From a virus: a DNA stretch of 64,000 nucleotides. Positions 36,014 through 59,244 of the stretch are shown one piece after another. Made by a program: the position numbers and the translations under genes. The notes beneath the pieces were generated by a model that worked only from the letters and a program-made list of their open reading frames with translations, was not told the origin of the DNA and searched no databases. Every line of letters starts with the position of its first letter. The first letter of the stretch is position 1. The stretch covers positions 67,085 to 131,084 of the IMG/VR virus record IMGVR_UViG_3300015370_000568; one strand, given 5' to 3'.

Positions 36014-37243
36014 TTAAATCCAACTTATAGTGATAGCATTGATATCATCGGGATAGATAATAATTCTGCCGAAACTAGTTGTAGCATCTATCGGGCTAAG
36101 ATCTCGCGGAGGATCAACCTTACTAAAGCTAGGATCATCTGGATCGGCTTTTTCATCATAGTACATTTCATCAATCGGTCTCCCGGGAGTGATTCCCATC
36201 GTCTGGATTTCATCAGATACCTCCATCACTCTCTGAATTGCTTCAGCTAGAGAAAAGGATTCACCGATATCCAGAGAGTTCACATACTCCTTCAATGACT
36301 GTCTTACATCTCGAGTAATAGCTGTCTGTTCTGAAGAAGTAATTGTCCTCCGAGACTTCAACGAAATGACAAACTTGAGTGATATTGTATCAGGAGCCTT
36401 TGCTATAACGTAAAGCCCTACTCCTTTCTTTTCTTCAATCGCTGCTTGAACAGCATCAATTAAAGACTGAGAAACTGTCGGTGTCGTAGACTTCAACAGA
36501 ACCTCAAATGTTCCAGCCCCCTGAGCATAAGGATATAACACCACATCTGCTACCCCAGGCACAGCTAAAGCTGCCATCCTGATAGATGTCGAGTTAGCTG
36601 CTTCTGCCGCCACAACTTGCTGACTAAGCCGATACCGATAACTAGCGTCTGTCTCTGTGTCAGAACCATTATCAATCGAAGAAGTATTGATAACTTTCAG
36701 GTCAGTATAGTTATCAATCCCATTGAAATCATGATACTTTAATTGATAGCGACCTACACTAGCAGCAGACCCTGAAGCTAAAGATTCAACAGGGACATAT
36801 TGTTCTGAGCGAGTACGATTGAGAACTACACTAACAGGGAGTCTATACTCTGCTATTCCAGTAGTTGTAGGACTGGCGCTGATATTGACACCGGCAGGAA
36901 GAGTAATATCCAGGCCGCCGTTAATAGAACCGAAAGTACCTGTTTCGACATAGAACTTTACGACTAGCTGACCAGCAGATACAGAAGCTCTAGTAGGTTG
37001 GCGACGTTCTAAAGACAATAGTTCGCCTAACCAGTCAAGGAATTTTCCTTCTGCATGACGAATGAAAGAAAGAAGAATAGTCTCATCAAATTGACGATAA
37101 GCTGTGGCTAAACGTTTGGCTACTGCTTCAGTCAAAGCTCGTGCTTTGGTTCCAGGTGCGGCAGTAGTTAATGCTGTATTATTGACGAGATCGGACACAA
37201 TCTCGCTGACAATATCTTCTTGTGTTCTACCAAAGAAAGGCAT
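36014..37243 (-). CDS. Baseplate J/gp47-like wedge protein
   Basis: AEGKFLDWLGELLSLER, NGSDTETDASYRYR, ALAVPGVADV, GAGTFEV. Confidence 0.9.
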   Translation of the reverse strand: MPFFGRTQEDIVSEIVSDLVNNTALTTAAPGTKARALTEAVAKRLATAYRQFDETILLSFIRHAEGKFLDWLGELLSLERRQPTRASVSAGQLVVKFYVETGTFGSINGGLDITLPAGVNISASPTTTGIAEYRLPVSVVLNRTRSEQYVPVESLASGSAASVGRYQLKYHDFNGIDNYTDLKVINTSSIDNGSDTETDASYRYRLSQQVVAAEAANSTSIRMAALAVPGVADVVLYPYAQGAGTFEVLLKSTTPTVSQSLIDAVQAAIEEKKGVGLYVIAKAPDTISLKFVISLKSRRTITSSEQTAITRDVRQSLKEYVNSLDIGESFSLAEAIQRVMEVSDEIQTMGITPGRPIDEMYYDEKADPDDPSFSKVDPPRDLSPIDATTSFGRIIIYPDDINAITISWI

Positions 37244-41400: not shown

Positions 41401-44295
41401 ATTCTTTACTTTGAATTGCGCGTCTATAATAGAATCATATCCATTCACTACATTCTCGTCTGCCCAAAAAGCAGGACCGGAGAACTTGCCGTTTCTTTGA
41501 ATTTTCTTAGCTATAGAAGCATTACGACGCTGTCCAGTATCAATCTGGTCAGTCAAATAATTTCGTGCCGCCATTGCTGTTTTACCAGCACGACCTTTTG
41601 TGTTTACTATTTTGCTAATATTGCTATCAAGGGCAGCTCTCTCAGCCTTGGACAGATGATTCTTTAGATAGACTTCATTAATCCAAGACAAGAGAGTTGT
41701 ATCATCTCCTCGGCCATGGTCCATCAAAAACTTATACTGACCTTGAACAATATCTTTAGCCGTATCAACCATTGCTCCTAAAGCTACAGGATCCCAAGCA
41801 ACAGCTCCTTCGTCATAGAAATAGAAGTCAGGATTGATAAAGTCTCCACGCTGAGCTTCTTCAATTGTTTCCAAAGCCATATCAGGATAACAACTATTGC
41901 CTCCCAGAAGTCCTATCTTCTTGATTCTCTCCCAGATATCCATGAAATCAGTGACATTCTTTAGATATCCACGACGAATGATATTGCCGCAAATAGCCCA
42001 AATCTGTAAATCAATCTCTCGAACAGCTTTCAAGAGAATCTTCTTTAAGTTATCCTGAGTATTCTGTGATAAACCAGCTACCTCAATCAACGGTCTACGG
42101 CCTACAGTTACTTGACCTAATGGAGGATTTACAACAGAGATAGGAGTTTTACCAGACGAGACAGAAGGAATATAAGAAAGATCAGACTTCTCACTATAAT
42201 CTTGACGAAGAGAATAATCTTGATGGTACTTGCCACCAAGAGGAGCTGTGTCTTTAGTGACTGTCCCACGATTATAAAAGGCCAAACCCTTTCTAGCTTG
42301 GTCTACCAAGAAAGAACCAGCAAGTGTCGAAGCTGTTAACTCTGATTCAAAATGAACAAGGATAGCCAAAGTGTCAGAGATTCTAATATCCGAGAATGCT
42401 TCAGAGATTTCTTTGTTAAGTTTTGGTGTCGAAATACTTTGTAGATAGCTAGTCAGTTTTGCTCCCATTAAAGGAACGCCTGCATCTGTTCCCTTTTGAT
42501 GCATTTGAACCATTGCAGAAAGAGAATTAAAACCTTCTGCAATACCTGGAATACCATTATTAAGCACAGGAAGTAACTGACTCTTCACAAAATCTATCAG
42601 AAAACTCATCCCTCCTGGGTCTTGTACTAATCTTCCCCATCCTCGTTTAACTACCCACTGAGGCATATAACCAGGTGTCTTTTGTCTATCCCAAAGATTT
42701 GCTCTTACTGCTCCTAATTCACTAGAATCACCATTATCTAGGTCCATGAGATTCTTGAACTTTTCTAATAGAGCTTCTTGAATTTTGGGTTCAGTATCCA
42801 AGTAAGGAGTATAAGCCAAGTCTTGATTAACATCTTTGGCCGCAGCATCAACTGAAAAAGAAAGAGAGGCGGCATACTGACCTGGATTTCCTTCAATAGT
42901 AGTAACACTCAAGTTCTCGGGGACTAGATACTCTACTCCAAACATTGCAAGAAAATCATTTACCACAATCAAAGGATTTGAACGAGAGAATGCCCGCATT
43001 CGTAAAGAATTCTCTTGTAGAGCATCCCAACAAGATTGTAAATCGGAAATAGCTTCTGACCCATCCACTAACAGGTTAATCATTACTTTTCTATCAGCAC
43101 CACCGACATGTTGAATAGTAGCATACTGATGACCGGCAAGAGGAAGCTGTACGTAATGATTAACATGTTGGAAAGCAAGGTCAGTTACTACAAAAGAAGG
43201 AGGATGAATAGGTAGATTCCTGCTGCGCCACATTACATCAAATTTGGCAAGATGAGCAGCTGTTCTGGTAAAACTCGTAAGCCCAAGAGGAGATGCAGCC
43301 ATGTTGATAGTCTCATCTCCAAGTAACCGCCAGCCACCTTTCTGAAGAATTTCCCAGACCTCAGAAAAATCACGAAGCTCTCCCATTATTGATCTCTCAA
43401 TAACGTAGCTTAACTCATGAGCTACCTCTATAGCTTCGCCCCAATTATCAGTAGCTTTTTCTTGTAACTCTTTAGCTCTTTCAAGAATAGTCAAAAATAT
43501 CTTTTCAAACTGTTCCTGTTGAAACATCAGATGTTGATCTTCAGCATCAAGATCAGCATCTTGTTCTGGAGTCTGAACTTTTCCTTCTCCAGCTTCACTT
43601 GTCTTCTTCGTCTCTCTTTTTACCAGATCAAACTCAGTCCAAATGAAACGAAGATCTACTTGAGCCCTGGCCGGAGGATAGATGACATAATGTCGATCCA
43701 CCATAGCTCTGCTAACCCAATCCATCCAGGGAACACTATTTTGTGGATTATCAGCGGCAACAGGTTCTTCATTCTCTTTGACATAGTCTTTGACAAACCG
43801 ATAGCCAGACGAAAAAGGAAAATAGTTAAACCAGTCAATAACTAGTTCTAAAGAAAGATGATCTCGGTCTCCCTTGTTAGTATGAACAATAGCAGAGCGT
43901 ACACATCCGGCCATATTTCTGACATCATTAGCATTAGCTGTCATATTCTGACGAACATACTCATTGTCGATATAGACATAGGGAGTAAGAGAAATCTCAG
44001 CCATCAAGCGTTGGAGTTTATCGATATCTTCTTTTCCAATAAACTCGATAGCAAGTTGAATCTGGGCTGCGGAATGACCACTTCTGATATGTAGAGGCGT
44101 AGAAGAACGAACAACATCCCAACGGAAGTTATGAGGAGTCTTGTCAATCTTGATACTGGTAGGAGGAATATTCAGTCTGATATCGTTTAACCAGAAAGCA
44201 TCATTACCATATTTTCCTGTCCCACTAAATTCCGCCACTATATCTCTCCTAATACCATATCTTCCGCTTGTCTCTGAGAGAGCTTGTTTCGCCAA
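38500..44295 (-). CDS. Baseplate hub/tail-associated lysin with internal M23 peptidase
   Basis: M23 motifs FHYGQD (HxxxD), QYWHM, VKVGDEVKKGQ, GHLHFE near 40900-41260. Hub-like KMGY, TIWDVF and GNPDIKVHD...VTHTLS...GFIT. Confidence 0.8.
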   Translation of the reverse strand: MAKQALSETSGRYGIRRDIVAEFSGTGKYGNDAFWLNDIRLNIPPTSIKIDKTPHNFRWDVVRSSTPLHIRSGHSAAQIQLAIEFIGKEDIDKLQRLMAEISLTPYVYIDNEYVRQNMTANANDVRNMAGCVRSAIVHTNKGDRDHLSLELVIDWFNYFPFSSGYRFVKDYVKENEEPVAADNPQNSVPWMDWVSRAMVDRHYVIYPPARAQVDLRFIWTEFDLVKRETKKTSEAGEGKVQTPEQDADLDAEDQHLMFQQEQFEKIFLTILERAKELQEKATDNWGEAIEVAHELSYVIERSIMGELRDFSEVWEILQKGGWRLLGDETINMAASPLGLTSFTRTAAHLAKFDVMWRSRNLPIHPPSFVVTDLAFQHVNHYVQLPLAGHQYATIQHVGGADRKVMINLLVDGSEAISDLQSCWDALQENSLRMRAFSRSNPLIVVNDFLAMFGVEYLVPENLSVTTIEGNPGQYAASLSFSVDAAAKDVNQDLAYTPYLDTEPKIQEALLEKFKNLMDLDNGDSSELGAVRANLWDRQKTPGYMPQWVVKRGWGRLVQDPGGMSFLIDFVKSQLLPVLNNGIPGIAEGFNSLSAMVQMHQKGTDAGVPLMGAKLTSYLQSISTPKLNKEISEAFSDIRISDTLAILVHFESELTASTLAGSFLVDQARKGLAFYNRGTVTKDTAPLGGKYHQDYSLRQDYSEKSDLSYIPSVSSGKTPISVVNPPLGQVTVGRRPLIEVAGLSQNTQDNLKKILLKAVREIDLQIWAICGNIIRRGYLKNVTDFMDIWERIKKIGLLGGNSCYPDMALETIEEAQRGDFINPDFYFYDEGAVAWDPVALGAMVDTAKDIVQGQYKFLMDHGRGDDTTLLSWINEVYLKNHLSKAERAALDSNISKIVNTKGRAGKTAMAARNYLTDQIDTGQRRNASIAKKIQRNGKFSGPAFWADENVVNGYDSIIDAQFKVKNEGAITHGLGANDIVRGSVGSSASRGVTAAREQFGKPLDKPIFMYGGVISPFGWRGNSFHYGQDWPTDSRDANGQSDADALSIADGRVSSIKQGYKVLDGRDYSTVITVEHPQVGLATQYWHMDIRSHIPVKVGDEVKKGQSLGPIFPGCDERSRSGQDPKQGHLHFECHIRDRGKLQEAIGIIPSGYIRAGKVDPDFVLNKSIASEVGKRAWGEGYKLGDSLLDRSLKSLKESLLKNNTYTMRRAFPTFKLYFIEEDRDENRRTVHQFDDFFSYSAVHSITFHSDEDNPVSNAVITLSNVGGNLSNRRFAGDPGAFGADETNLTNKGESQNIKDMDTEQENPIKSFLLQEGLKVELKMGYDANPDKLTPLLVGTVSGVEFNETTDVVTIVVDSYGYELVQVIKGLEEPSEKETGTFFGDDAETGELLSELLAEPEMKHFGRWEPYERNPSRDALTKTWQVILDPSDDNLFPPDSELSGGGGWFFASNLRYFIYRTTIWDVFQEMTLRHPECIAYPVHYQDTWGPRMTMFFGVPSQFYFARGLKTHEQQEIEKEVIKPFEEETEGIVNKWHEGLTQILGWPGWLPDVGSSSWLLNQSIESYQKVERRFIAQYRDKLLLQEGLGREQIKPFRNYHVATSWGNIISNNIRSSPEGVANTVAVEYNEVDGFNEDTQQFEFESHAHDSGVVEMKGHATIPDHLVRELRLAGEEMINCESKIMAVRYALSALKKGYRKAYTGELVLLGNPDIKVHDIIFILDTYSDMVGPIEVGAVTHTLSKETGFITIIKPRMCVSIGEWASMSVHDALGYLVQGMYGYNTANLNAGPEGEGAPAWMNYVQKLLPGGVSYSGSAAGGLVVASTPIAGGALLTGSMLGIAMLGKKIVHYTQYGNPICVTPLVLNGKPLSAGLGTRYTQTSWFWRPVGEAVKWFSDGASGIYDAMAELSAYCGDLTSIGKPFGKASRLGPSPE

Positions 44296-47200
44296 TTACG
44301 GACATTGACATTAATGTTAGCACGATTCCTTGTTACTTGCGAGAGTTCACTAGCTAATTGATTGGCATCAACATCTGCTCTCGGACGAGCTGATATTTCG
44401 GCTCGCCAAGTATTTTGAACAAATCTACCAGCCTTCTGAATATAAGCCTTGGGACTAGCCATAATTCCAGCAGGAGCCCCAGGATGTCCCTGAAGCATTA
44501 ACCCAGGTTGAGAAGGCCCAAGAGGTAAATCAGTTCCCGACCTCCGCCCCATATCCGGTCTAGGCGGAGCTTTGTCTCCAGATACTACAGGACCTGGAGA
44601 CGAAAAGAATGACCCAATTGCTAAAGCTCCTGCAAATCCAAATGCTAAAGGTGTAGCATGAGGTAGGATACGCTCTCCAGCTTGAGCTAATCTCCGAAAT
44701 GCTGAAGTAGCTCCTGAAGCTAAACGCTCACCCAAAGCTTCTTTTCCTGCTCCTCCAACAAGCATTTCCATACCCGGAAAGATATCTAATAATCTCCTGG
44801 ACTTCTGAGCTGTCAAGCCGAAAGCTTCTGCCATAGAGACTTTAGCTCTTGGATTAGTGATATGGCGCATAAGAGTAGCAGGACTAACTTTAGCTGTTGG
44901 GTCTACAATTTGAAGTTGTTTCCCCAAGTCAAAGAGACGACCCAAATCACTTTCAAGATTATAGGCTTTAAGAGACATAGCTTCTTGAGCTGTACCAGAT
45001 AATCCAGCCATTAGAGATACAGACCCACCACCAAACATCTTTGTTGCCGCTTGTCTAAATGGATCTGTTGAACCTCTAGCATCTACAGCACTACGAAGAT
45101 ATCCAGCTATACCCCCTATTGCCTGTTGTCTTTGTTGTGCTGATGCTGCTGGATTCATACCTAGTTTCATCCAGTTAGCTACATTTTGAGCTTCTCTTGC
45201 AGCTGTCTCCATCTGTGCAGTACTATAGTGTCTTGCCGAAATAGGGACCTGTTCTACAAGACCTAATAGACTCCCTAGTTTTAATGCTTCGTCTGTCCCA
45301 ACAGCTCCACCTTCCAAACCATGTAATACACCAGCTCGTAAAGCACTAGAAGGAACAGAAATGATTCCTGTCATCATCTTTTCCATCTGTCCTTTAGTAG
45401 CTTCGAGTTGTCGAATCTTATCCAAAGACATACCTGCTGGCAGTTCTCCTCCAGGAGCTTTCATGCCTTCAGAAATCAAAGCATAACGCATAGCCTCAGA
45501 TTGAACCATTTTCTGAGTAGTAATAGCTTTGGTTTCAGAAGGAAGGAAAAAGAGATTACCATGGTCAGCATCATAGTCACCGAAAGCAGCTGCTAATTCA
45601 TCTACTCGCCATCTCTTAGTCTTCCCCCCAAGAGATACTTCCATTGCTTGTTCAGGCATCAAGAGTTGTGATTTCTTGAGTGTTGGGTCAATCCGAGCTC
45701 TAACAGTCTGTAAACTTAATGGATGAATAGTAGGGTGCCGCCAGAAAGCTGATATAGCTCCTTCTTCAGACCAAAGAGCTTTCTGAACTCTTTTAGCTTC
45801 TGCTGCTCCCCGTATTCTTTTAACTTCTCCCAGCATCTCAGACGCATCATGCTGACTGACTGCTACCTGACCAGCTTTTAACTTAAGACTTTGTTCCATA
45901 GCTGTGATAGTAAGAAACCTACTCATTGGAATCTTACCTCTGAGTAATCCTTTGACATTTGAACCGCTACCAAAACCAGTCAGAGTAGCAAATAGAGCCG
46001 GGTTAATACCTCTTTCTAGAGCAGCAGTAGCACGAGCAGAAGCTTCTGCAGGAGACCTACCAAGTTCTGTTGCTCGCATTGCTTCAATAACTTCAGAGAA
46101 TGGCTCAACAAGATAATTACGAATAGGTGTGCCGCCAGGAACATCTCTGGCGCCCATCATGAATTCCATATGTTGAGTCCCTGGTACCCAGAACTTTTCT
46201 ACATTCGCTTCTATCCCACCAAGATTCATAGCAAGAGTGCCTTTAGGTTTGGCCCAAAAACCTTGTCCTCCACGAGCTTCAATCATTTCAGCTAATTCAT
46301 GGGCAGAAGAAGGAATCATTTCAAGAGGAACTGCCTCTCCTGTTTTAGTAGTAGCCTGGCCCATAATAGACCTTACAGATTCAAGTAATTCTGCCCCGGC
46401 AGCTTCTAATTCAGGAGCCTGCCATCTACGTGCTTTCAAGAGTTCTGCCATAACTACTTGTCCTTCTGGTCCATAATGAGCACTTGTAAACAACATACGT
46501 GGCTCAATAGAACCCATCCCTCCAGCTCCTAGCTCAGTAGTAGGACCTTTGGATGCAAGACGGAACACCCCTTGAAGTCGTAATGGGTCTTTTGCTAACG
46601 CCTGAGCAAATCTTGTTCTTGTCGCACCAGCTCCCATTCCTAATTGTTCTAGTCCAGCTTCTACAGCAGCAGGAGTTTCCATTCCTTTCAAGCCGGCCTC
46701 AGAATAATATCGTAAACCACCAAAGACTTCAGAAATGTGAACAGGAGAAAGAGGCCCATATTGTGTTTCTAATGCTGCTGCTCGTCCTAACATAGTCTCT
46801 GCCATAGTCTGTGGAGACCATCGTTCTGTTTGCATTCTTTGAAACAATCCTTCAACAACCTCTATGTCATGCCGTAACAACTGTATTGCATCAGCTCCTG
46901 CCCGCTTCATCAGCTGTCTTTCTAGTTCCATCAAGCCAGTAAACATTTGTTGATGTTGTAATGCCCGAACTCTTTTCAGTTCTTTAATAGGCGATACTCG
47001 TTCACTTCTGGCTATACCTCGTATAGCATCACGATGTATTTGTCGTACTAACTCAATACGTTCTGCTACTGGTAAATCTGTTCGAGCTTCGACAGCACGA
47101 TAAGCTTCTTCTAAAGAAACCTCTTGTGCCATACTTTTCCAGGCCTGTTTATCAAAAGGCATTTCTACTCGAGGTCCAAAGAAGAACTTAGTTGATACAG

Positions 47201-49061
47201 CAGAACCTGCTTCTACAGGAGGAGTCCATTGAACTTTGACTTCAATTAAATCTTGAATAGCGCTTCCTTTAACTTTAGGAGTACGAGCTAAACTAATAAC
47301 TTCTTCGCCTTCTTCAAGAAGTCTTACTGCTCCTGTTGCTTCTTCAAACCCTAGCTGTTCAAGTCTTCCAAAAGTACCTGGCGCTATAGCCTGGAATTGT
47401 TGGCCGCCAGCCATAAAGTTTCGTAATTTTTCGCCTACATCTAACTCAGATGCTTGAATTCGAATAGTCTTTACAGATGTTCTTTCTGTCAAATCTCGCA
47501 CTATTTGTGATTCTCGTGAAATCCCAGCACCATCAGACATCCATTTAGCTTGACGACGCATAAGGTCATAATCAATAAAAGCAAGTCGCTCTAATGGCTC
47601 TGGAATAGCTTCACCATAAATTGCTGGCTTGAAAGCAGACCATGATAGTCGAGTAGGATCTAATCGTTGAAGTTTTTCAGCAGCTTCAATAGCTTTTGGT
47701 GATGGGCCCCAGTCTCTAATTGTGATTTCAGGTCTTGCTCCTACTCCCCAGAGGTCTCTATATTGACCTTCAGGAGTAAGATAAGAATAGCCAAAAGGGA
47801 TAATATCACTTGTCGGAACAGTACTAACCGTCGAAGCCAAAGAACCTTTAGCCACACCGGCATAACTCATTGGCTTCCCGCCAACAGCTTCAGAAAGAAC
47901 TTCTAGTTTTCCTCCTTCTAGACCGTAAGGAACTAACCGACCTACTGGTCCTCCTTCTGCTAATTGCAGACGAGTAATGTAACCACCGGCACGAAGTTCT
48001 TGGTAAGGTTCAAGTAATCCGCCGATAGCAGGAGTAGATTCACCCCTCCATGTTCCCATTTCAGCTCGATACTGTTTGAACAGACTTCTAGCTGCTTCTG
48101 GACTAGTAGCTGCTTCTATATTGGGTAGATATTGTTCTGCCCGCCAAAGAGCAAATTCAGAGAAAGTCATTGCTCGGCCAGCTACACCTTCTTGTCCATA
48201 TACCATAAACCTACCAGGCATAAAAAGACTTTGCCCAACAGGCCCAGTACTAATCATTCCTCCACCAGGACCAAAAGCCATAGGAACATCCAGATGATGA
48301 GCAACTCCCCCAGCTTCAAATCGAAGCGAGCCTACTCCACCAGCACCAGGATAGACACTAGGAGCATAAGAGAATTGAGCTCCATATTTTGTCTGGAAAT
48401 TAGCAAGCTTCTGTTTCATAAACTCTGAATTACCACTAAGCGCTCTGAAAGCATCCATCCCTACAACTTTACGAACTGGAGAAGCTCTTCCAGACAACCG
48501 AACCATATCCGGATGTCCCTCTCTTGAAGCTTTAAGTAGCTCGAAAAAGTTCTTCCTGAAGTTATCAAAAACGCCCCGAGTTTCATCCAAAGTCTTTCGA
48601 GTACTTAATTCATGGCCAATATGTTCAATGATAGCCTCTGGCGAAATTGCTTTAGCAGTCCCGCTAGTCCCAAACATTTGCATCAGTTTACTATGTTGAC
48701 TTCGATAATGAGGACCTCCATAATAAACAGCTCCTTCCCATGCTGTCCTCAAATGATTAGTTAGAGGAGGTAGAGGACTGGTTTTAGATTGTCCTTCCAA
48801 TACTTTGACTATTCTTTGAACCGCCTCATCTATTTCTACTTGTTCAACTGGCCGTACTCCAGCTTTTTGAACTAACTCTTCTATAGCTGTCCAAGCTTTT
48901 TGAATTCCTTTCCCTCTATCAGCTCCTGCTCGTAAAGTAGCATTAGCAGCCTCAGCTTGTTTGACATTACGAAGAGTAGTTAGAGCACCAACTCCAACAG
49001 CTCCTGCCATAGCCAAGCTAGCTAAAGTACGTCCGCCACTTTCTGTTCGTTCATCAGACAA
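44238..49061 (-). CDS. Tape-measure-like protein containing a putative single-chain two-barrel RNA polymerase domain
   Basis: Ordered motifs MSDGAGIS, STKFFFGPR, GGMGSIEPRM, GLLRGK..SRFLTI, LKAGQVAV, WRHPTIHPLSLQ, AFGDYDADH; hydrophobic Ala/Gly segments near both ends. Confidence 0.72.
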   Translation of the reverse strand: MSDERTESGGRTLASLAMAGAVGVGALTTLRNVKQAEAANATLRAGADRGKGIQKAWTAIEELVQKAGVRPVEQVEIDEAVQRIVKVLEGQSKTSPLPPLTNHLRTAWEGAVYYGGPHYRSQHSKLMQMFGTSGTAKAISPEAIIEHIGHELSTRKTLDETRGVFDNFRKNFFELLKASREGHPDMVRLSGRASPVRKVVGMDAFRALSGNSEFMKQKLANFQTKYGAQFSYAPSVYPGAGGVGSLRFEAGGVAHHLDVPMAFGPGGGMISTGPVGQSLFMPGRFMVYGQEGVAGRAMTFSEFALWRAEQYLPNIEAATSPEAARSLFKQYRAEMGTWRGESTPAIGGLLEPYQELRAGGYITRLQLAEGGPVGRLVPYGLEGGKLEVLSEAVGGKPMSYAGVAKGSLASTVSTVPTSDIIPFGYSYLTPEGQYRDLWGVGARPEITIRDWGPSPKAIEAAEKLQRLDPTRLSWSAFKPAIYGEAIPEPLERLAFIDYDLMRRQAKWMSDGAGISRESQIVRDLTERTSVKTIRIQASELDVGEKLRNFMAGGQQFQAIAPGTFGRLEQLGFEEATGAVRLLEEGEEVISLARTPKVKGSAIQDLIEVKVQWTPPVEAGSAVSTKFFFGPRVEMPFDKQAWKSMAQEVSLEEAYRAVEARTDLPVAERIELVRQIHRDAIRGIARSERVSPIKELKRVRALQHQQMFTGLMELERQLMKRAGADAIQLLRHDIEVVEGLFQRMQTERWSPQTMAETMLGRAAALETQYGPLSPVHISEVFGGLRYYSEAGLKGMETPAAVEAGLEQLGMGAGATRTRFAQALAKDPLRLQGVFRLASKGPTTELGAGGMGSIEPRMLFTSAHYGPEGQVVMAELLKARRWQAPELEAAGAELLESVRSIMGQATTKTGEAVPLEMIPSSAHELAEMIEARGGQGFWAKPKGTLAMNLGGIEANVEKFWVPGTQHMEFMMGARDVPGGTPIRNYLVEPFSEVIEAMRATELGRSPAEASARATAALERGINPALFATLTGFGSGSNVKGLLRGKIPMSRFLTITAMEQSLKLKAGQVAVSQHDASEMLGEVKRIRGAAEAKRVQKALWSEEGAISAFWRHPTIHPLSLQTVRARIDPTLKKSQLLMPEQAMEVSLGGKTKRWRVDELAAAFGDYDADHGNLFFLPSETKAITTQKMVQSEAMRYALISEGMKAPGGELPAGMSLDKIRQLEATKGQMEKMMTGIISVPSSALRAGVLHGLEGGAVGTDEALKLGSLLGLVEQVPISARHYSTAQMETAAREAQNVANWMKLGMNPAASAQQRQQAIGGIAGYLRSAVDARGSTDPFRQAATKMFGGGSVSLMAGLSGTAQEAMSLKAYNLESDLGRLFDLGKQLQIVDPTAKVSPATLMRHITNPRAKVSMAEAFGLTAQKSRRLLDIFPGMEMLVGGAGKEALGERLASGATSAFRRLAQAGERILPHATPLAFGFAGALAIGSFFSSPGPVVSGDKAPPRPDMGRRSGTDLPLGPSQPGLMLQGHPGAPAGIMASPKAYIQKAGRFVQNTWRAEISARPRADVDANQLASELSQVTRNRANINVNVRNWRNKLSQRQAEDMVLGEI

Positions 49062-52000
49062 TTAGAATTGCCCTCGCATTTCTTTCAATTGGTCGGCCAC
49101 ATCATATTCAAGATTCACATTCACTTCATTCTGATTTCCCATTCCTCGATGCATAGAAATCATAGCTGTCGAGATATCAAGGTCAGTCATAAGACTTTTC
49201 AAACGTCCTTCGACCTCCCACTTACTCATTGTACCCCGAAAATCTTCTACTGCATCTTCGTTAATATATGACTTGTAAGGCATTGTTAGCATACGGTCAG
49301 GCCATAAACCATAATCGTGCATATCCATACCTTCGTCAGTGATATACTTCATAGCCACATCATCTAAATCGACCTGAGGTAAGAAGCCTATCCACGAAGG
49401 TCCTGGCATAGAGAACCCTAGTTCTTTAACTCTTTCAGCTATCTTTCTACGTCTAAACCAATCAGCATAGTTTTCTCCTTGGATTCTTGTAGAAAGGAAT
49501 TCACCATATAAATCTTCATCAATGGGAAAACCTTCTGTCTTGACAGCTTCTTGAATACCAGCAATCTGTTCTTCAGCCTCGGCCTGAGACATACCTACTA
49601 GAGTATCGTTTCTAATAGAGTCTCGTAAGGCATCCATATACTTCAAATGCCATTGGCCGACAAGGAGAGGTTTTTCTACTTCAGGAACTATTTGAAGAAT
49701 TCGATTTTTCTCTTCGTCTAATGTCACATCAGAAAAGGCTCTGAAGTAATCTCTCTCAGAAGAAGGAATAGACCTGTATAATTGAGATAGATTGCGGCCC
49801 ATGACATTAACACCAGTAAGAGTAGTCCGCCGCAAATCTTCATATTGATTGGCCGCTTCTTGATTTCCTTGCTCAACAGCCACTCTCTTTAATCTTGTAT
49901 ACTTGACATATTTCAAAATATCGAAGAACTCAGAAACACCTCTTTGTTCTTGAACAGCAGTAGGAATACCTTGCCAGCCAAAAGCATTAGCTGTCTGCAT
50001 GAAAAAAGGTTTGATGAAGTCTGAATAAGGTGAACCCCACATAGCAATCTTGGGGCCATACAGGACTTCTCTTTCATATGCTTGAATAGAAGTTCGCATA
50101 TGAAGTAATTTGGACGCAGGAGCTAAAGGAGTCAAAGCTTCTAGAGGAGTCTCTAAAGCCAGACCAATAGTTTCCCAGTAAGTCCCTAATGTTCTACCAA
50201 AGAGACCTACTCCTTCTCCTCGTTGAGCTCGTTTCCTGGATTCAAGAAGCATATCTCTGGCAGATTCAGTGCCTCGGCCATATCTTTCTTCATAGAAGCG
50301 AGTCCCTTGTTTTTGTTCTTCTACTTGGCTTCTTATCTTTTCATACCAAGCAGTCTCATCTTCTGTTAATTGTCCCTGTTTAACAGCTCTAACCATCTCT
50401 CTCTGAGTAGCTTTGAACTGAGTAGAATATGGTGCTGACCGGGCCAGTACATAATACTGCCAGGGAAGAGGATAATCTTCAGGAGCTACTCCTTCTAATT
50501 CAGGATGAATAGCAGCTAACCCAGGACCAGGCAGCAGAGCCTCGCCCATGGGTATTTTCATGAAAGGGTCACCATGAAGAAAATCAGGTGACCTTTCTCC
50601 AGGCCCAGGCATCCATTCTGGCATCTGGTTTCTAATAGGTGGTTCTATTCTAGGTATCTGTCTTTGTTTATGAGGATAGAGTCTGCGCCACCATTCTGTT
50701 ACTCCAACAGGGTCACCCATTTGGCCTTCCCAGAAACTTCTGAGTTCTTCTCCTCCATACATAGCTCCAGCAGTTCTGAGTCTAGCTTCTTGGTCCCACC
50801 AGCCCGGTCTTCCAGTAACTGCTTCTTTAACAGATTCCAACATGAAACCTGGTAGTCCAACGACTTCCTGCATCCGGTACATCTGTTCGCCTAACATATC
50901 TGTCAGGCCGCCTTCAGGACGTAAAGCTCCTGGACCTGTACCTCCTAATCCAGGAACAGAAGGAGTTTGTCTACCAGCAGGATAAAGAGTTCCACCGCCA
51001 CCAGTCCATTCATCTGTATGATAATACTTGGCCGGTTTCACTATTTGTCCTAGAGTACCAGCTAACAAGGGACCGAAAATTGGTACGTCCGCAAAAGCAG
51101 GACCCGATTGGCCGTAGGGCCTATCTTCATAATGGAGGTCCTCGAGATGATAAGTAAAGTTTTGTAAGAACCATTTCATGAATGGACTTGTAGGGTCTCC
51201 CCATACTCCTGCTTCTTCTGGTTTGAAACGAGTAAGAGCAGCCCAATGAGGACGAAATTGCATAATTCTTTCGCCTTCATAGCTTGACCTGCCTGCAGGC
51301 CACCATCTGCCTTTTCTTATTGGTACATCTTCTTCACCGGAAAGTTGTCTCCAAAGAGAATCTGGTCGTTCAGAAGGAATAAGAGCGCCGGGAAGAAAAG
51401 GAAGAACTAAAGCTGCTCCAGCAGCTGCTCCTAACCAACCACGAAGACTTGTTGGTGATTTGGCTCTAAGTATATCTCCTACCTTGCCTAATTGTCTACT
51501 AAGCCATCCAGGTTGTTGGCCAGTAAGGTATTTGCCGCTATAGAGTTTATCCATAGCCCAGCCCATGACTTTTCCTTGATAGTCACGTCGGCCAAGAGCA
51601 CCTTTTACACTACGCTCAATGAAATGACCCATTCGGCCTTCGAAACGAACAGCTCTTTGTTCAGCTTCAATAGCCATCTTCTCTAATTGAGCTTGATGTT
51701 CAGCTGAAAGAAATTCTACTTTGCTCCACTTTCTAAAATCTCGGGCTTGGCCTTGTAATAGGTCAAGAGCTCTTTTATGAGGTTCAGTCATCTGTTTATA
51801 GATTCTTTGTTTATGTAGATAACCAGCCGTCATACCCATAAAAGCACCAGCTGCTGGGAAAGCCGCAAGATGAGTCAGACTTGTAGAACCTGGAGCTGCT
51901 TCTTCTTGCCATTCTCTAATGGCATGTAGACCTGTATATTCAGCCGCTGTTGAAAGAGCAATCTGTCCTAACATATAACTCTTAGCAACCCAAGCATTGA

Positions 52001-53075
52001 TACCTTCAGTACCTAATTCTCTTGTTGCCCAATCAACAGTATTCCAGGCACCAATAACCAGTGGCAGCCCAACACCTAACTTGAGTCCTAATTTGCCCCA
52101 AGTCTTCCATGCCTTGGTATGAGTTTCAATTACTCGTCCGCCAGGACCTATCATTCTTTCAACACCAAGGCCGAAAGGACGAAGAAATTCTGGCATCTGA
52201 CGTTCTAATCCTTTACGTACTCTCTTTGCTCCAGGGATATATTTCTCGGCAACATCAGTCATTTGCCAGAGAAGTCTATTGAATCTTTGAGATATATCAG
52301 TAGCCACGCCACCAAACATTCTTTGGGCAGCTTCTCGTTTAGTTTTTCCTCCTGTAAGAATAAAGTGTTCACGCATCATTAAATCGCCAGAACCAATACC
52401 TTGACCTAAATACTGGAATTCACTAGGAACAGGAATCTTCTTTCCACCTCTGACTTTTTCAAAGAACGCTTCACCTGAATAAGCACCAGGAATAATACCT
52501 AGACCGCCACGAGCATAAGATTCCATTGCTCGAGTAGGACCTCGAGACATCAAAGGAGTGCGGAGAATACCTGCATGTTCCAGAAGAACTTCTCCTGCTG
52601 TTCCTTGTCCAGCAAAGACTTTCCCCTTAGCAAAAGTTGCCCCTTGCTCGATGAGAGCTGTTTCCTGAGCCGCAGATAGCCCCATTAGCTCACGATAATA
52701 GCCACCAAGGGGAGACCCTTGACCTGTCAGCCATTGTCCCCATTGTGTTCCAGGAATAAACCTGGCAGCTTGACCTTCAGAGCCAAAACCAGATAGCCAG
52801 GTAGAAGCCTGAAAAGTACGAAGAATTTTAGCCGGCGACCGTTCTTCTAAGAACCGTATCCCTTTGAGATACTGGTCCCAAATATTACCACCTCTGTAGG
52901 AAGCTCTACCTATAGCAGCAATAGCTCCTACACCACCAAAAAACTTGGTCCATTGCCAAAGAGGATTATCGTATGGTACTTGTTGTTCGCCCGTTCCTAA
53001 AACAGGCTGAGGCTGAAGGGGAGAAATATCCCAGGCCCCACTATCTCCCATTCGAAATGTGGAAGGTTGTAACAT
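49062..53075 (-). CDS. Tape-measure-like protein
   Basis: 1337 aa, Gly/Ala-rich with several hydrophobic segments, directly after the chaperone-like genes. Confidence 0.62.
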   Translation of the reverse strand: MLQPSTFRMGDSGAWDISPLQPQPVLGTGEQQVPYDNPLWQWTKFFGGVGAIAAIGRASYRGGNIWDQYLKGIRFLEERSPAKILRTFQASTWLSGFGSEGQAARFIPGTQWGQWLTGQGSPLGGYYRELMGLSAAQETALIEQGATFAKGKVFAGQGTAGEVLLEHAGILRTPLMSRGPTRAMESYARGGLGIIPGAYSGEAFFEKVRGGKKIPVPSEFQYLGQGIGSGDLMMREHFILTGGKTKREAAQRMFGGVATDISQRFNRLLWQMTDVAEKYIPGAKRVRKGLERQMPEFLRPFGLGVERMIGPGGRVIETHTKAWKTWGKLGLKLGVGLPLVIGAWNTVDWATRELGTEGINAWVAKSYMLGQIALSTAAEYTGLHAIREWQEEAAPGSTSLTHLAAFPAAGAFMGMTAGYLHKQRIYKQMTEPHKRALDLLQGQARDFRKWSKVEFLSAEHQAQLEKMAIEAEQRAVRFEGRMGHFIERSVKGALGRRDYQGKVMGWAMDKLYSGKYLTGQQPGWLSRQLGKVGDILRAKSPTSLRGWLGAAAGAALVLPFLPGALIPSERPDSLWRQLSGEEDVPIRKGRWWPAGRSSYEGERIMQFRPHWAALTRFKPEEAGVWGDPTSPFMKWFLQNFTYHLEDLHYEDRPYGQSGPAFADVPIFGPLLAGTLGQIVKPAKYYHTDEWTGGGGTLYPAGRQTPSVPGLGGTGPGALRPEGGLTDMLGEQMYRMQEVVGLPGFMLESVKEAVTGRPGWWDQEARLRTAGAMYGGEELRSFWEGQMGDPVGVTEWWRRLYPHKQRQIPRIEPPIRNQMPEWMPGPGERSPDFLHGDPFMKIPMGEALLPGPGLAAIHPELEGVAPEDYPLPWQYYVLARSAPYSTQFKATQREMVRAVKQGQLTEDETAWYEKIRSQVEEQKQGTRFYEERYGRGTESARDMLLESRKRAQRGEGVGLFGRTLGTYWETIGLALETPLEALTPLAPASKLLHMRTSIQAYEREVLYGPKIAMWGSPYSDFIKPFFMQTANAFGWQGIPTAVQEQRGVSEFFDILKYVKYTRLKRVAVEQGNQEAANQYEDLRRTTLTGVNVMGRNLSQLYRSIPSSERDYFRAFSDVTLDEEKNRILQIVPEVEKPLLVGQWHLKYMDALRDSIRNDTLVGMSQAEAEEQIAGIQEAVKTEGFPIDEDLYGEFLSTRIQGENYADWFRRRKIAERVKELGFSMPGPSWIGFLPQVDLDDVAMKYITDEGMDMHDYGLWPDRMLTMPYKSYINEDAVEDFRGTMSKWEVEGRLKSLMTDLDISTAMISMHRGMGNQNEVNVNLEYDVADQLKEMRGQF

Positions 53076-55536: not shown

Positions 55537-56487
55537 CTAGAGGAATGGATTCATTCTATTCCGATATCGGGCATAATCAACATCTTCAATGAGTTTAGAC
55601 CCTGTCAAGGACCAAGGCTTATTTACTGCTTGTGGCTTAGCTTGTGCATCAAAAGCACGTAATGGGTCCCAATCTCGTGCTATATATTGAAGTTGTGTCT
55701 CAGTCAATAAGTCTTCAACTGAAATAGTCATGCCCTCATTAACAAATTCTACTCCATAAAGAACCATTCTAGAAATGAACCCATATTCATTAGCTGCTAC
55801 AAGAGTAAGGTCCATAGGAGGTAATTGGTCAGGAAGTTGATAGACTGCATTATCAAACCCTTCAAATCGGTTGGTAATGTTCTCCATAAGAATCCTGAAT
55901 GGATGCTCATTGAATACAGTACAAATCATTGTCCCAGCAATTGTTCTTGTTCCGCGTGTATATCCTTTAGCCCCGGAAGCTAATAGAGCTCGAACAGGTA
56001 CTTTCTCTCTATGTGAAGAAACAGATAAAGTCTGAGCAGTTGTTAGTTCTAAGAAAGCAATAGATTCATTTTCGTAGATTATAGTATCAGCTCCACTTGT
56101 AAGAACAGCAATTTGTTGCTCTAAAGCTTCTCTCTGAGCCCACAAAGTAGTACGTTCATCAGCAGAAAAGGAAGGAAGCAATAGTTGATCCATTACTAAT
56201 GCGCTTTGAACTAATAGTTTCTCTGCTCTAGCTCTATTAGCCTCATCTATCTTCTCTTTAATATCTCGAAGAAGACCTCCTGCATTATAGATATTCAAAA
56301 GGATTCTAACATCAGTACCAGAAAAACTACTATTACCTGCAGCCCATATACTTCCTGTTTCTTTTACTCGGACGGGAAGATTCTGATAGTCTTTGATATC
56401 ACGAACCCCATAACTACTCCATTGTGAAGGCAAAGCAGAAGGAAGAATCTGTCTAGTCCCTACTGCATCAGAAGACCAAATAGTCAC
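55537..56487 (-). CDS. Tail tube-family protein with coiled-coil insertion
   Basis: SFSGTDV, QTLSVSSHREKVPVRAL...RGTRTIAGTMI, DQLPPMDLTLVAANEYG, QYIARD. Confidence 0.75.
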   Translation of the reverse strand: MTIWSSDAVGTRQILPSALPSQWSSYGVRDIKDYQNLPVRVKETGSIWAAGNSSFSGTDVRILLNIYNAGGLLRDIKEKIDEANRARAEKLLVQSALVMDQLLLPSFSADERTTLWAQREALEQQIAVLTSGADTIIYENESIAFLELTTAQTLSVSSHREKVPVRALLASGAKGYTRGTRTIAGTMICTVFNEHPFRILMENITNRFEGFDNAVYQLPDQLPPMDLTLVAANEYGFISRMVLYGVEFVNEGMTISVEDLLTETQLQYIARDWDPLRAFDAQAKPQAVNKPWSLTGSKLIEDVDYARYRNRMNPFL

Positions 56488-56499
56488 TTTTAGCCTCGC

Positions 56500-56545
56500 A
56501 GAAAGAAAGAATCCGGGGAGTCTTTATTTAGACTCACCTGGATTC
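56500..56545 (-). terminator. Rho-independent terminator after the major tube gene
   Basis: Minus strand reads GAATCCAGGTGAGTCT-AAATAA-AGACTCCCCGGATTC followed by TTTCTTTCT. Confidence 0.7.
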
Positions 56546-56590
56546 AGAATAACATGGAAGAGAGTTATTGACTAGTCGTTATTGGGATTA

Positions 56591-57307
56591 CTATTTTGCA
56601 CCAGCATAAAGCTGACGGGGATCTGGATTTTCGACAACAAACCACTTAGTTACATCGCGGGCAACATAAGTCATTTGCTCTTCAGATACAATATCATCAA
56701 TAGAAACTCCATAACCTTCATTAAGAGTCTCTACTCCCCAAACCTTCATTACCGCAATAGCTCCATACTCATTAGCAGCTGCCAAGGTAATGTCAAACGG
56801 AGGTACTTGGTCTGCATACCAAGCAGGACGATAATTACCTGAAAGACCAATTCCTGCTCCTTCAAGAACATTTGTAGTAGAAACCGAAGCCCCACCTAGA
56901 GCAGTTACTGATCCTGGAATCGGATTGCCTGCCGCATCCCCAAAAGCTTTCGTTAAAGCAAGATCATCAAAATTCGTTCCCTGAGTAGGTCCTTCCCATA
57001 AATCTGACGATCCAGGAACAAGTTCATCATTATCAGCAAAGAACTGCATATTCATATTTTTCATTGCCGACATCATACCTGATTGGTCGAACATGATGAA
57101 AATCAGAGTACCAGCAATTCCTCGCTTACCACGAGCGAAAGCTCTTGGATTAGGACTGCCCATAGTATAGACAGGGCCTTTCTCTCGAGTAATTGAATAG
57201 GAAATAGCCTGAAGTTCTCCAACTACAGCCGATCCAAATACTGCCTTGATATCAGTCCCAGAGAAGCTGTTGTAGCTTCGTGCATATGGACTAGCTTGCT
57301 GCGCCAT
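56591..57307 (-). CDS. Major tail tube protein
   Basis: SFSGTDIKAVF...LQAISYSITREKGPVYTMG...RGKRGIAGTLIF...PPFDITLAAANEYG; directly after the sheath; strong AGAGGAGG ribosome-binding site. Confidence 0.82.
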   Translation of the reverse strand: MAQQASPYARSYNSFSGTDIKAVFGSAVVGELQAISYSITREKGPVYTMGSPNPRAFARGKRGIAGTLIFIMFDQSGMMSAMKNMNMQFFADNDELVPGSSDLWEGPTQGTNFDDLALTKAFGDAAGNPIPGSVTALGGASVSTTNVLEGAGIGLSGNYRPAWYADQVPPFDITLAAANEYGAIAVMKVWGVETLNEGYGVSIDDIVSEEQMTYVARDVTKWFVVENPDPRQLYAGAK

Positions 57308-57342: not shown

Positions 57343-59244
57343 TTACAGCGTTGCCGCAAGACTCATTGTGATCGTAATGCGCCGCAGTTCGAACTCAGGC
57401 ACCAGAACTAGCTCGATTGTCGCTTCACCTGAGATTTCCTGGTTAGTTGTAGCAGAAACGTCGCAATAGCCTCCCTTCAAACCATGACCCACATAACGAC
57501 CAACCACTGAATCAATTTGGGTCTTCAGAGCTGCCCGCTGTAGAGCAGAGTTAGCTTCACCAATGAAGGGATCACATACGATTCGAATATCATTCAGCAC
57601 TCGCTTGACTGTCTGAACAGTAGACTGCCGCTGATAATCACTATCAGGACGAGCCGCTGTAGGTGCATCTACCCACACAACACCCTTGGTTCGCTTGCCA
57701 ATCATGACATAACGGAACCGGCTCAGAGCATCAAGCTTAGTCAGATTGACGCGATAAGGTAGACGTGCCTTCCGAACCAACTTGTTAGTCGGAGCAGAAC
57801 CAGTCCCTAGACTAGACACAAAGCCAGCATAAGCAGCCGACATGTTTGTGATATAGCCGTTGCCAGTCGTATCCCAAGGAGTATTCAGAACTCCCCAGCC
57901 AGCTACAATACTGAGATACTTGCCGATATCAATCAGATGGCCGTTCCCATCAATCTGTTCGATACTACCACTTTGAGTAGGATACTCATCGGCTGTCAGA
58001 ACGAAACCACCATAAGCAGCACCTGACCGATAAGTGCTCTTCCCGGCCATAAACTTGTTACCAAGAAGACCAGTCCCATTATCAGCAGCAGCCGCGACAT
58101 ATAGATTCTGGTCATCATCATAACTATATGTAGGAGCCTTACCAATCCAGGAAATGACTGAAGCTGAATCCAGACCATGAGGCGGCAATACTCCAATCAT
58201 TCCTACACACTCATGTGTGCTAACCGATTGGTTATAGCAGAAGTCTGCTAGTTGATAAGCAAAGTTGACTTCCCGGAAATCAGCAGTTGTCAGAGTTGTT
58301 CCTTCTGCATCAGTTGTTGCACTAGATAGACCGACACTTGGATACAGCTCAGCAACACCATCTCCATTCAGGTCCCACCAGAAATACCATTCACCTAGAT
58401 ACTCTTGAGCAAAGAGTTTACCAAGACCATCATATTGCGTTTGAGTTAGGGGAAGAGGATAAGTCTGTGGTGTAGCCGGAGTATATCCACTAAAGAGAGT
58501 AGGAGACTCGACTACGTTAGCGACATCCATATAGACTTCCATAGGCACAACGAAGTCCATAGCCTCGTTTTCAAGCAGCTTATAGGCTGCAAACAGAAGC
58601 TCATACTTCTTCATATAGCTAGGAGCTGCAGCTCCAACACCATCACTACCAGCCAGATAGGTCAGGCCGACAGGAGGATCGTCAAAGTCTACACCATCAT
58701 CTGGACCAGGATCGCCAGTAACAGGAATTGTTCCAATATCCGACCCTGAAGCATCATAAGTGCCGGTAACTGCAACAATACCACCATCTACATCAGCACC
58801 TGGAGAACCATCGAAATCACGATGATAAACTAGATCGCCAGAAGCACCCCAAACAAAAAGCTCTGCTTCACTTTGGTCCCAAGCTAACTTGACACCATCA
58901 GCAGCGGTTGCGTCTTTCTGAATAGTCTTGATGACGATACCGGAATCGATACCGCTCATCACAGAGCCTACACCACCTAGAGTGCAGACATCACCACCAA
59001 AACGCCATAGCCGGAAATTCTTTCCGCCCCAACCATAAGCTTCCATCAGGCCACGAGTAAGAGACCCCTCAAAGCCAAACTCAGTAACGCCTTCAGTCGG
59101 GCTGGTGATTCTGTAGTAAGTCTCAGATTCACCTTTGGCAGCAGTACCAAGAATTAGGATTTCAGGAGCTGCTGCTATTTCTTGCAGAGTTAGCTTTCCA
59201 TCCAGTTTGTTGGTAGTTACACCAGGAAGATTTTCGAAGCTCAT
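57343..59244 (-). CDS. Contractile tail sheath protein
   Basis: N-terminal LPGV, LILGTAAKG; C-terminal FIGEAN...IELVLVPEFELRRITITMSL. Confidence 0.88.
   Translation of the reverse strand: MSFENLPGVTTNKLDGKLTLQEIAAAPEILILGTAAKGESETYYRITSPTEGVTEFGFEGSLTRGLMEAYGWGGKNFRLWRFGGDVCTLGGVGSVMSGIDSGIVIKTIQKDATAADGVKLAWDQSEAELFVWGASGDLVYHRDFDGSPGADVDGGIVAVTGTYDASGSDIGTIPVTGDPGPDDGVDFDDPPVGLTYLAGSDGVGAAAPSYMKKYELLFAAYKLLENEAMDFVVPMEVYMDVANVVESPTLFSGYTPATPQTYPLPLTQTQYDGLGKLFAQEYLGEWYFWWDLNGDGVAELYPSVGLSSATTDAEGTTLTTADFREVNFAYQLADFCYNQSVSTHECVGMIGVLPPHGLDSASVISWIGKAPTYSYDDDQNLYVAAAADNGTGLLGNKFMAGKSTYRSGAAYGGFVLTADEYPTQSGSIEQIDGNGHLIDIGKYLSIVAGWGVLNTPWDTTGNGYITNMSAAYAGFVSSLGTGSAPTNKLVRKARLPYRVNLTKLDALSRFRYVMIGKRTKGVVWVDAPTAARPDSDYQRQSTVQTVKRVLNDIRIVCDPFIGEANSALQRAALKTQIDSVVGRYVGHGLKGGYCDVSATTNQEISGEATIELVLVPEFELRRITITMSLAATL

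Follow-up and report, generated by a model that had tools for sequence, protein, structure and literature searches.

A candidate two-barrel RNA polymerase of a single chain, encoded at the tape-measure position of a phage with a contractile tail

We analysed a 64-kb window of viral DNA (64,000 nucleotides, the right part, positions 67,085 to 131,084, of the 131,084-bp IMG/VR record IMGVR_UViG_3300015370_000568, rated 65% complete) and found, among the tail genes on its minus strand, an open reading frame (ORF) for a protein of 1607 amino acids (aa) that very probably contains a beta'-type catalytic module homologous to that of the two-barrel RNA polymerases. The protein as a whole is probably a highly diverged single-chain RNA polymerase of the cellular (two-barrel) type, complete and active, and we lean, with noticeably less assurance and by analogy with a known tail-borne enzyme, towards a role in which it is packed inside the tail and, once ejected, begins transcription. 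Crass-like phages are known to have two-barrel polymerases, as are the phiKZ-like and AR9-like jumbo phages and a single siphovirus group, in which the polymerase is borne on the tape measure.

A preliminary description of this DNA had proposed eight polymerase-like motifs in the ORF, and all eight are present where it placed them: MSDGAGIS (residues 508-515), IEVKVQW (606-612), STKFFFGPRV (623-632, containing K625) and GAGGMGSIEPRM (845-856) in the half likened to bacterial beta, followed by GLLRGKIPMSRFLTI (1038-1052), LKAGQVAV (1061-1068), FWRHPTIHPLSLQ (1106-1118, containing R1108) and AAFGDYDADH (1158-1167) in the half likened to beta'. Its mapping of the Asp triad D1162-D1166 to nt 45564-45578 likewise agrees with ours. 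The protein has no PHROG match and no Pfam family at E <= 0.1, matches no PDB sequence either as a single sequence or as a family profile, and has no tblastn match in 50,697 phage records; a word-index protein search returned the protein itself and nothing else, a result that has no bearing on fused or split forms.

Relatives were recovered by an all-against-all HMMER search with residues 400-1300 as query, which gave 14 proteins (E 2e-70 to 9e-4; 13 of 1451-1728 aa and one 632-aa fragment), and by a pattern scan of IMG/VR with a family sub-alignment, which gave 14 loci and, after removal of two duplicates, 11 new sequences. Scans for related loci with the 1607-aa protein alone found nothing, nor did scans of viral and metagenome contigs with another family alignment. 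Family proteins are about 1420-1730 aa long, the alignment spans them from N-terminus to C-terminus, and identity to the 1607-aa protein is 16-29% (first 15 alignment rows). Conservation was counted on an alignment of 26 non-redundant members, 25 of which cover the K625 region. Invariant in all 26 are P960, S1047, R1108, P1110, S1116, D1162, D1164 and D1166 and, further toward the C-terminus, E1270, I1274, H1278, G1475 and P1527; G571, K625 and G831 are found in every one of the 25 covering members. The three Asp proposed to bind Mg are kept throughout the family, as had been claimed for this one protein, and the replacement of the second beta Lys by Arg was also read correctly, position 631 being Lys in 24/25 members and Arg solely here. 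The DxDAD spelling, described at first as non-canonical, is not confined to this protein and is the family norm, because the fourth position of the Asp motif is Ala in 14 of the 26 members (Gly in 8, Lys in 2, Glu in 1, Ser in 1). Position 1277 is Lys in 25/26 members and again Arg solely in the 1607-aa protein; both substituted residues, R631 (nt 47169-47171) and R1277 (nt 45228-45230), lie within candidate active-site elements. Given its conservation across 26 divergent members, the motif set goes beyond chance.

The beta'-like half has support from predicted fold. Residues 360-1340, modelled with AlphaFold2 on a 15-row alignment, have a block predicted local distance difference test score (pLDDT) of about 60-90 at model residues 511-610 and 681-820, and the model sets the Asp triad on a predicted double-psi beta-barrel (DPBB) at model residues 687-832, as expected of a beta'-type barrel with DxDxD. 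A Foldseek search of the PDB with this model returned at least 500 matches at E <= 0.001 (best 4oin_D, E 1.1e-6), and every one of the matches listed is an RNA polymerase entry. A wide VIA-align search of 48,161 representative chains gave, among the matches listed, 22 at Z >= 8.0, comprising 16 RNA polymerases and 6 free DPBB domains. Largest-subunit matches reach Z 10.2-10.9 with 265-350 residues aligned (human Pol I, Z 10.7, 349 residues, model 543-968), and the polymerases at Z >= 8 include Pol IV, vaccinia, Pol II, archaeal, Pol III and African swine fever virus enzymes as well as those of Mycobacterium tuberculosis, Pol V, plastids and phiKZ, together with RDR2 (Z 9.8), P74 gp62 (Z 9.3), QDE-1 (Z 9.2) and AR9 (Z 9.1); the structures of gp96 from Thermus phage P23-45 score Z 7.4 and 7.1 over 187-198 residues. 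The free DPBB domains align to model residues 685-840 (7dww_A, Z 8.0; Cdc48-N, Z 8.8-9.5). When the top Foldseek chains were re-aligned with VIA-align, 717 of 997 scored Z >= 8.

Profile comparison supplied a sequence link to the same barrel. With hhalign, the 26-row family profile and the single E. coli beta' sequence gave one 170-column alignment (family 976-1172 to beta' 257-470; E 0.0029), and the 15-row profile found the same alignment start. R1108 and P1110 stand opposite beta' R425 and P427 in this register and the Asp triad opposite D460/462/464, RHPxIGPYS being paired with NRAPTLHRL and GDxDAD with NADFDGD; the family block GxGGLxRGxVxGSRxLT is aligned to beta' in the same 170 columns. 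The available text of Ruprich-Robert and Thuriaux (PMC2919709) counts Rpb1 R446 and P448 among eight residues invariant in all two-barrel polymerases, and R1108, P1110 and the Asp triad would correspond to five of that eight; an invariant Arg and Pro upstream of the triad, a mark of the superfamily, are present in all 26 members. The helices that follow, with E1270, I1274 and H1278, fall within the stretch aligned to largest subunits, which reaches model residue 968, and we name residues 1223-1278 a candidate bridge helix and trigger-loop start. Each of these lines is weak or moderate alone; jointly they indicate that R1108, P1110 and the Asp triad sit on a predicted beta'-type catalytic barrel. 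The beta'-like half of the preliminary description is borne out in this way by fold matches, by invariant Arg, Pro and Asp, and by a profile in register with E. coli beta'.

The catalytic centre of a two-barrel enzyme needs a second, beta-type barrel, which supplies two basic residues (Rpb2 K979 and K987) and the acid for metal B (Rpb2 D837). Upstream of the beta'-like half, the family conserves an xDGxG column at 510 and G571, K625, R631, K697, Q705, F780-G781, G831 and E853, with family blocks xxDGxGxIS (about 510), GExLGYD (about 570), KxFGxxK (625-631), ELxKNRxLHxxQM (about 697-705), FGAxP (780) and GAGxxGSxEPR (845-855) that run in the order first proposed. K625 and K/R631 would provide two basic residues that fit the second-barrel requirement, and D510 is a candidate only for the counterpart of Rpb2 D837, no alignment pairing the two. 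From this conservation a second barrel seems likely. A kinship of residues 470-900 with N4-like virion polymerases, raised by ESM Atlas features and PF00940 clusters (0.86-0.90), was dropped because the scores lie within the tool's chance range and the PF00940 fold differs.

The gene's surroundings are those of a tail module. All large genes surrounding the ORF are on the minus strand, and in transcription order they are the sheath, two tube-position genes, three small ORFs, a 1337-aa giant, the 1607-aa gene, a 1931-aa hub/lysin giant, small ORFs and the baseplate wedge. The contractile tail that the preliminary description had proposed follows from the sheath and wedge matches to phrog_16991 and phrog_6 (Table 1); by tblastn, the sheath matches its counterparts in Acinetobacter phage ME3, Bacillus phage 0305phi8-36 and Moorella phage MTATph1. 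The 1337-aa upstream giant has no Pfam or PHROG match, and the C-terminal third of the downstream giant resembles the baseplate hub/endolysin of 0305phi8-36 and ME3 (tblastn). Lying between the tube genes and the baseplate hub, the 1607-aa gene occupies the usual tape-measure place of contractile-tailed phages. The arrangement recurs: the family gene comes after a giant gene of 1131-2123 aa at all 14 viral loci, and a giant follows it at all 13 loci whose contig continues, this giant being 1914-2081 aa long at the 12 complete loci and cut at 731 aa by the contig end in the remaining copy (L011). An ORF of 402-417 aa stands further downstream at 11/14 loci, its PHROG check covering the window copy alone. 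The window's flanking giants are homologous to those at locus L001, in the 189-kb relative, and to 0305phi8-36 gp145 and gp147.

The label "tape-measure-like" given earlier to the protein is apt for its position and for a C-terminal motif common to it and 0305phi8-36 gp146, but not for the build of the chain, most of which is predicted to be a mixed alpha/beta polymerase core and not a helical ruler; two other giants share the slot. The description of its flanks as Ala/Gly-rich with hydrophobic segments was similarly right in part: Ala makes up 22% of residues 1-60 and 12% of the entire protein, Gly 13% and 11%, and there are hydrophobic segments at 13-30 and 1471-1489, but the Ala/Gly content of residues 1330-1607 equals the protein average.

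A block of three giant genes is common to the window, 0305phi8-36 (gp145-147) and ME3 (gp035-037), its outer two genes being homologous throughout and the middle gene alike solely in the last ~60 residues. The family hidden Markov model (HMM) matches gp146 at residues 2457-2518 (domain E 4e-7, 16.9 bits, among 7 sequences), and an HMM from a smaller profile matches the gp146 C-terminus (domain E 3.2e-6, among 9 sequences); gp146, of 2537 aa, has neither a DxDxD nor an RHP motif. According to the available text of Hardies 2007 (PMC2147016), gp146 and its Bacillus counterparts have nothing conserved beyond the last 60 residues, and tail length was the basis on which gp146 was given its tape-measure role. 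The database record of 0305phi8-36 marks gp145 and gp146 as virion proteins by mass spectrometry. ME3 gp036, the middle gene of the ME3 block (1603 aa, annotated hypothetical), matches the family profile at residues 515-654 (E 1e-9, among 7 sequences; hhalign E 1e-4, probability 58%). This match is confined to the beta-like segment and the remainder rests on motif inspection, by which KFFSVGSK (632-638), REPAQGTMS (1174-1182) and DHDQD (1217-1221) stand at matching places; on this sequence evidence ME3 gp036 is a probable relative of the family. The available text of the ME3 genome announcement (PMC5000817) mentions no RNA polymerase, and that of Iyer et al. (PMC7824862) gives phage two-barrel polymerases in group 1 jumbo phages, 0305phi8-36 and Clostridium phage c-st only. 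Moorella phage MTATph1 has a middle giant of 1309 aa that lacks DxDxD and is separated from the hub gene by a transposase gene and three small ORFs (L025 9930-11417).

We looked for other polymerases in the record that holds the window (G000) and in a relative with a complete genome of 188,653 bp and terminal repeats (G001), each of which has a single copy of the family gene. PF00623 had no match in G000, and PF00562 had none in G000 or G001, so neither genome has a separate beta gene by this test; the same two profiles matched in 14/14 control genomes. PF05183 had no match in G000, G001, ME3 or the Moorella phage, the 0305phi8-36 control giving E 1e-20. The lack of a PF00940 match in G000 and G001 is uninformative because 0/14 control genomes matched. 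A screen of the G001 ORFs of at least 400 aa turned up no further recognisable RNA polymerase. In the replication arms, the large ORFs encode ribonucleotide reductase, DNA polymerase III alpha, primase-helicase, ligase and similar proteins.

The features described suggest a division of the chain in which the polymerase core would occupy about residues 1-1340, the beta-like region upstream giving two conserved basic residues and the beta'-like barrel contributing the Arg/Pro motif and DxDxD metal site, followed by the candidate bridge helix and trigger loop, whereas the last ~270 residues would comprise the hydrophobic segment and the short motif common to the 0305phi8-36 tape-measure-slot protein. 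With these two C-terminal features the protein has the look of a polymerase core to which the anchoring C-terminus of the protein usual in this slot has been joined. The C-terminal module may build the protein into the tail interior; on contraction the protein would exit the tail with or ahead of the DNA and then refold, and the refolded polymerase would take on transcription of the first phage genes with no need of the host polymerase, in a manner resembling P23-45. We favour packing and ejection, by a modest degree of belief, because of the gene position, the C-terminal motif and the precedent of P23-45 gp96, which the available text of Chaban et al. 2024 (PMC10770324) describes as an RNA polymerase of the virion that forms one protein with the tape measure.

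An active two-barrel polymerase might instead be made late, together with the tail genes, and act in the cell, for instance in late transcription, in priming or in synthesis on RNA templates; that it is encoded in the tail operon would then be an accident of gene order. The good matches to the RNA-copying enzymes RDR2 and QDE-1 would suit such a role, but an accident sits poorly with a position kept between the same two giants at 14/14 loci whose family members are only about 25-30% identical, with a C-terminal motif common to a 0305phi8-36 virion protein of the same slot, and with the conserved hydrophobic segment that precedes this motif; we consider this account unlikely.

Several results weigh against the favoured reading of an active polymerase delivered by the tail. 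A dedicated model of residues 470-900 was poor (mean pLDDT 50), its best Foldseek match had E 0.12, and VIA-align found nothing above Z 6.8 and helical look-alikes only; second-largest subunits re-aligned to it scored Z 3.0-3.8 on the beta-sheet part (model 52-149), where unrelated chains scored similarly. By usual chain naming, we take 27 of the 49 Foldseek matches listed for this model to be second-largest polymerase subunits, but fold searches from a pLDDT 50 model are not usable as evidence. An hhalign comparison of the family with E. coli beta gave no meaningful alignment, and the column of D510, the candidate Mg-B Asp, is acidic in 18/25 members (Glu in 13, Asp in 5) and otherwise Gly, Gln, Ala or Arg, with Gly throughout one clade. 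The two double-psi barrels anticipated in the preliminary description are here one predicted beta'-type barrel and a beta-type half that keeps its place through K625, K/R631 and the further conserved blocks but has no significant fold match and a variable Mg-B column. The 360-1340 model is itself middling (mean pLDDT 59, predicted template modelling score 0.39), its Foldseek TM-scores to polymerases are low (0.13-0.15), and the hhalign probability against E. coli beta' is only 10.6%. The 1607-aa protein has Arg at 631 and 1277, where nearly all relatives have Lys. The Moorella phage, with a middle giant that lacks DxDxD and with no PF05183 match, leaves a pattern of "one polymerase or the other" not clean, and exact 9-, 10- and 12-mer counts in G000 and G001 gave no repeated promoter-like word, a crude count that covers exact words only.

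Some of these points would fit a non-catalytic structural tail or ejection protein descended from a polymerase, its barrel serving as a scaffold: the model of the second barrel has no confident fold, the candidate Mg-B acid column is variable, and both Lys-to-Arg changes fall in the protein at hand. A scaffold, however, would have no need of the Arg, the Pro, the three Asp and H1278 kept in 26/26 members, nor of K625 kept in 25/25, despite low identity, and we regard this descent into a purely structural role as improbable. That the motifs are a chance set in an orphan giant protein, as the lack of any Pfam, PHROG or PDB sequence match and the silence of PF00623 might suggest, is scarcely credible for motifs that are invariant family-wide, lie in one register against beta' over 170 columns, and fall, in an independent fold prediction, on a double-psi barrel that matches RNA polymerases best.

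A highly diverged, active two-barrel polymerase remains the reading we prefer, and if it is also delivered by the tail, such delivery would extend to contractile-tailed phages of about 130-235 kb, which occur in many metagenomes, and would explain how infection starts in phages without any recognisable polymerase gene. The family, unrecognised by Pfam and PHROGs and with a probable cultured relative annotated as hypothetical, would then add a new and very diverged sequence for the minimal catalytic core and pose the problem of how a tail tube stores and expels an enzyme of 180 kDa; cultured ME3 opens the idea to bench testing. More speculatively, and with considerable doubt on our part, the slot protein might be, across a lineage of large contractile-tailed phages including ME3, the phage's sole RNA polymerase, passing along the tail tube to the entry pore, where its C-terminal membrane segment would keep it, and transcribing the incoming DNA, such that transcription would be coupled to genome entry in a myovirus and might help drive it.

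Coordinates of the features discussed are collected in Table 1. Two adjacent genes after the sheath (55537-57307) match phrog_9206, "major head protein", a label that ME3 has in the same place; by position they are more likely tail tube genes. Left of the window, the record also has a ThyX gene with a LAGLIDADG domain (L007 18152-19936) and a gene for a 407-aa protein with a PARP catalytic domain (L007 4154-5377), and in G001 the genes for ribonucleotide reductase and DNA polymerase III alpha contain inteins with HNH or LAGLIDADG endonuclease domains (L028 15690-19439, L029 6077-10096).

Table 1. Features of the 1607-aa ORF and of neighbouring tail genes, in positions of the 64-kb window (model numbering is that of the residue 360-1340 model; HSP, high-scoring segment pair).
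Feature	Coordinates	Strand	Remarks
Whole ORF, 1607 aa	44238..49061	-	TTG start; candidate single-chain two-barrel RNA polymerase, tape-measure slot
N-terminal hydrophobic, Ala/Gly-rich segment, residues 13-30	48972..49025	-	family consensus PxxxGxGxG
Candidate beta-like (second-barrel) region, residues 486-860	46482..47606	-	conservation
K625...R631 basic pair (family consensus KxFGxxK)	47169..47189	-	K625 25/25; 631 Lys in 24/25
Beta'-like region with fold support, residues 901-1327 (model 542-968)	45081..46361	-	VIA-align, Foldseek
Predicted double-psi beta-barrel A, residues 1046-1191 (model 687-832)	45489..45926	-	block pLDDT 57-90
RHPTIHPLS, residues 1108-1116	45714..45740	-	invariant Arg, Pro, Ser (26/26 each)
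DYDAD, residues 1162-1166, predicted metal-binding Asp triad	45564..45578	-	Asp 26/26 each
Candidate bridge helix and trigger-loop start, residues 1223-1278	45228..45395	-	KLxxxK...RAA...LEQxPISxKH
C-terminal hydrophobic segment, residues 1471-1489	44595..44651	-	family consensus HAKPLAxGxGAS; G1475 26/26
C-terminal motif, about residues 1554-1598, common to 0305phi8-36 gp146 C-terminus	44268..44402	-	family HMM
Tail sheath gene	57343..59244	-	phrog_16991, E 4e-60
Upstream giant, 1337 aa, homologue of 0305phi8-36 gp145	49062..53075	-	blastp, several HSPs, best 2e-16
Downstream giant, 1931 aa	38500..44295	-	M23 peptidase PF01551 at residues 1037-1136; phrog_20474
Baseplate wedge gene	36014..37243	-	phrog_6, E 1.8e-34

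Among known systems, the giants of the same slot share the gene context. Both 0305phi8-36 gp146 and ME3 gp036 lie between homologues of the two flanking giants, and ME3 gp036 has nearly the same length (1603 against 1607 aa), whereas gp146 differs in its 2537 aa and in lacking DxDxD and RHP. We found no report in the literature of a polymerase in the tape-measure slot of a myovirus, although the supplementary polymerase-family lists and viral-genome survey of PMC10770324 may already include this family or ME3 gp036.

The YonO/RdRP family (PF05183: SPbeta YonO, 0305phi8-36 orf99, QDE-1 and RDR2) resembles the 1607-aa protein in being single-chain, found in phages and, on the reading preferred here, two-barrelled, but PF05183 matches neither this protein nor G000, G001 or ME3, and hhalign of the family against 0305phi8-36 orf99 gave no meaningful alignment. 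6VR4, which we take to be gp66 of phi14:2 (a crAss-like phage), a giant virion single-chain two-barrel polymerase encoded among tail genes, is absent among the matches listed in the Foldseek and VIA-align searches, and no direct comparison with it was obtained; phi14:2 is a podovirus-like crAss phage, unlike the contractile-tailed phage described here.

With P23-45 gp96 the protein shares a probable single-chain two-barrel plan with DxDxD and a gene in the tape-measure slot of a tailed phage. The available text of Chaban et al. (PMC10770324) gives P23-45 a long non-contractile tail and gp96 a length of 5,002 aa, with a tape-measure part of ~3,900 residues and a metallopeptidase besides; its structures are PDB 8h2m and 8h2n. 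The phage described here has a contractile tail, its polymerase core is followed by only ~270 residues, and the neighbouring downstream gene encodes the M23 peptidase; a second, non-virion polymerase such as that of P23-45 was not found in our searches of G000 and G001. In the VIA-align ranking gp96 scores below cellular largest subunits, RDR2, QDE-1 and P74 gp62, and hhalign of the family against gp96 residues 1-1200 gave no meaningful alignment. No specific kinship with P23-45 gp96 or gp64 is seen, the Z of 7.4 being below that of many polymerases. Among the profile comparisons, that with the E. coli beta' subunit gave an alignment, whereas those with E. coli beta, orf99 (PF05183) and gp96 gave none.

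The largest subunits of multisubunit enzymes (bacterial beta', Rpb1) are both the best structural matches and the only detectable sequence link, and the 1607-aa protein differs from them in being a single chain, in its 8-16% identity over aligned residues and in having no Pfam beta' domain. By the tests applied it stands outside the gp96, YonO/RdRP and Pfam beta' families. P23-45 gp96 is the published system nearest to it in logic, and the cellular largest subunits are nearest by sequence and by fold score.

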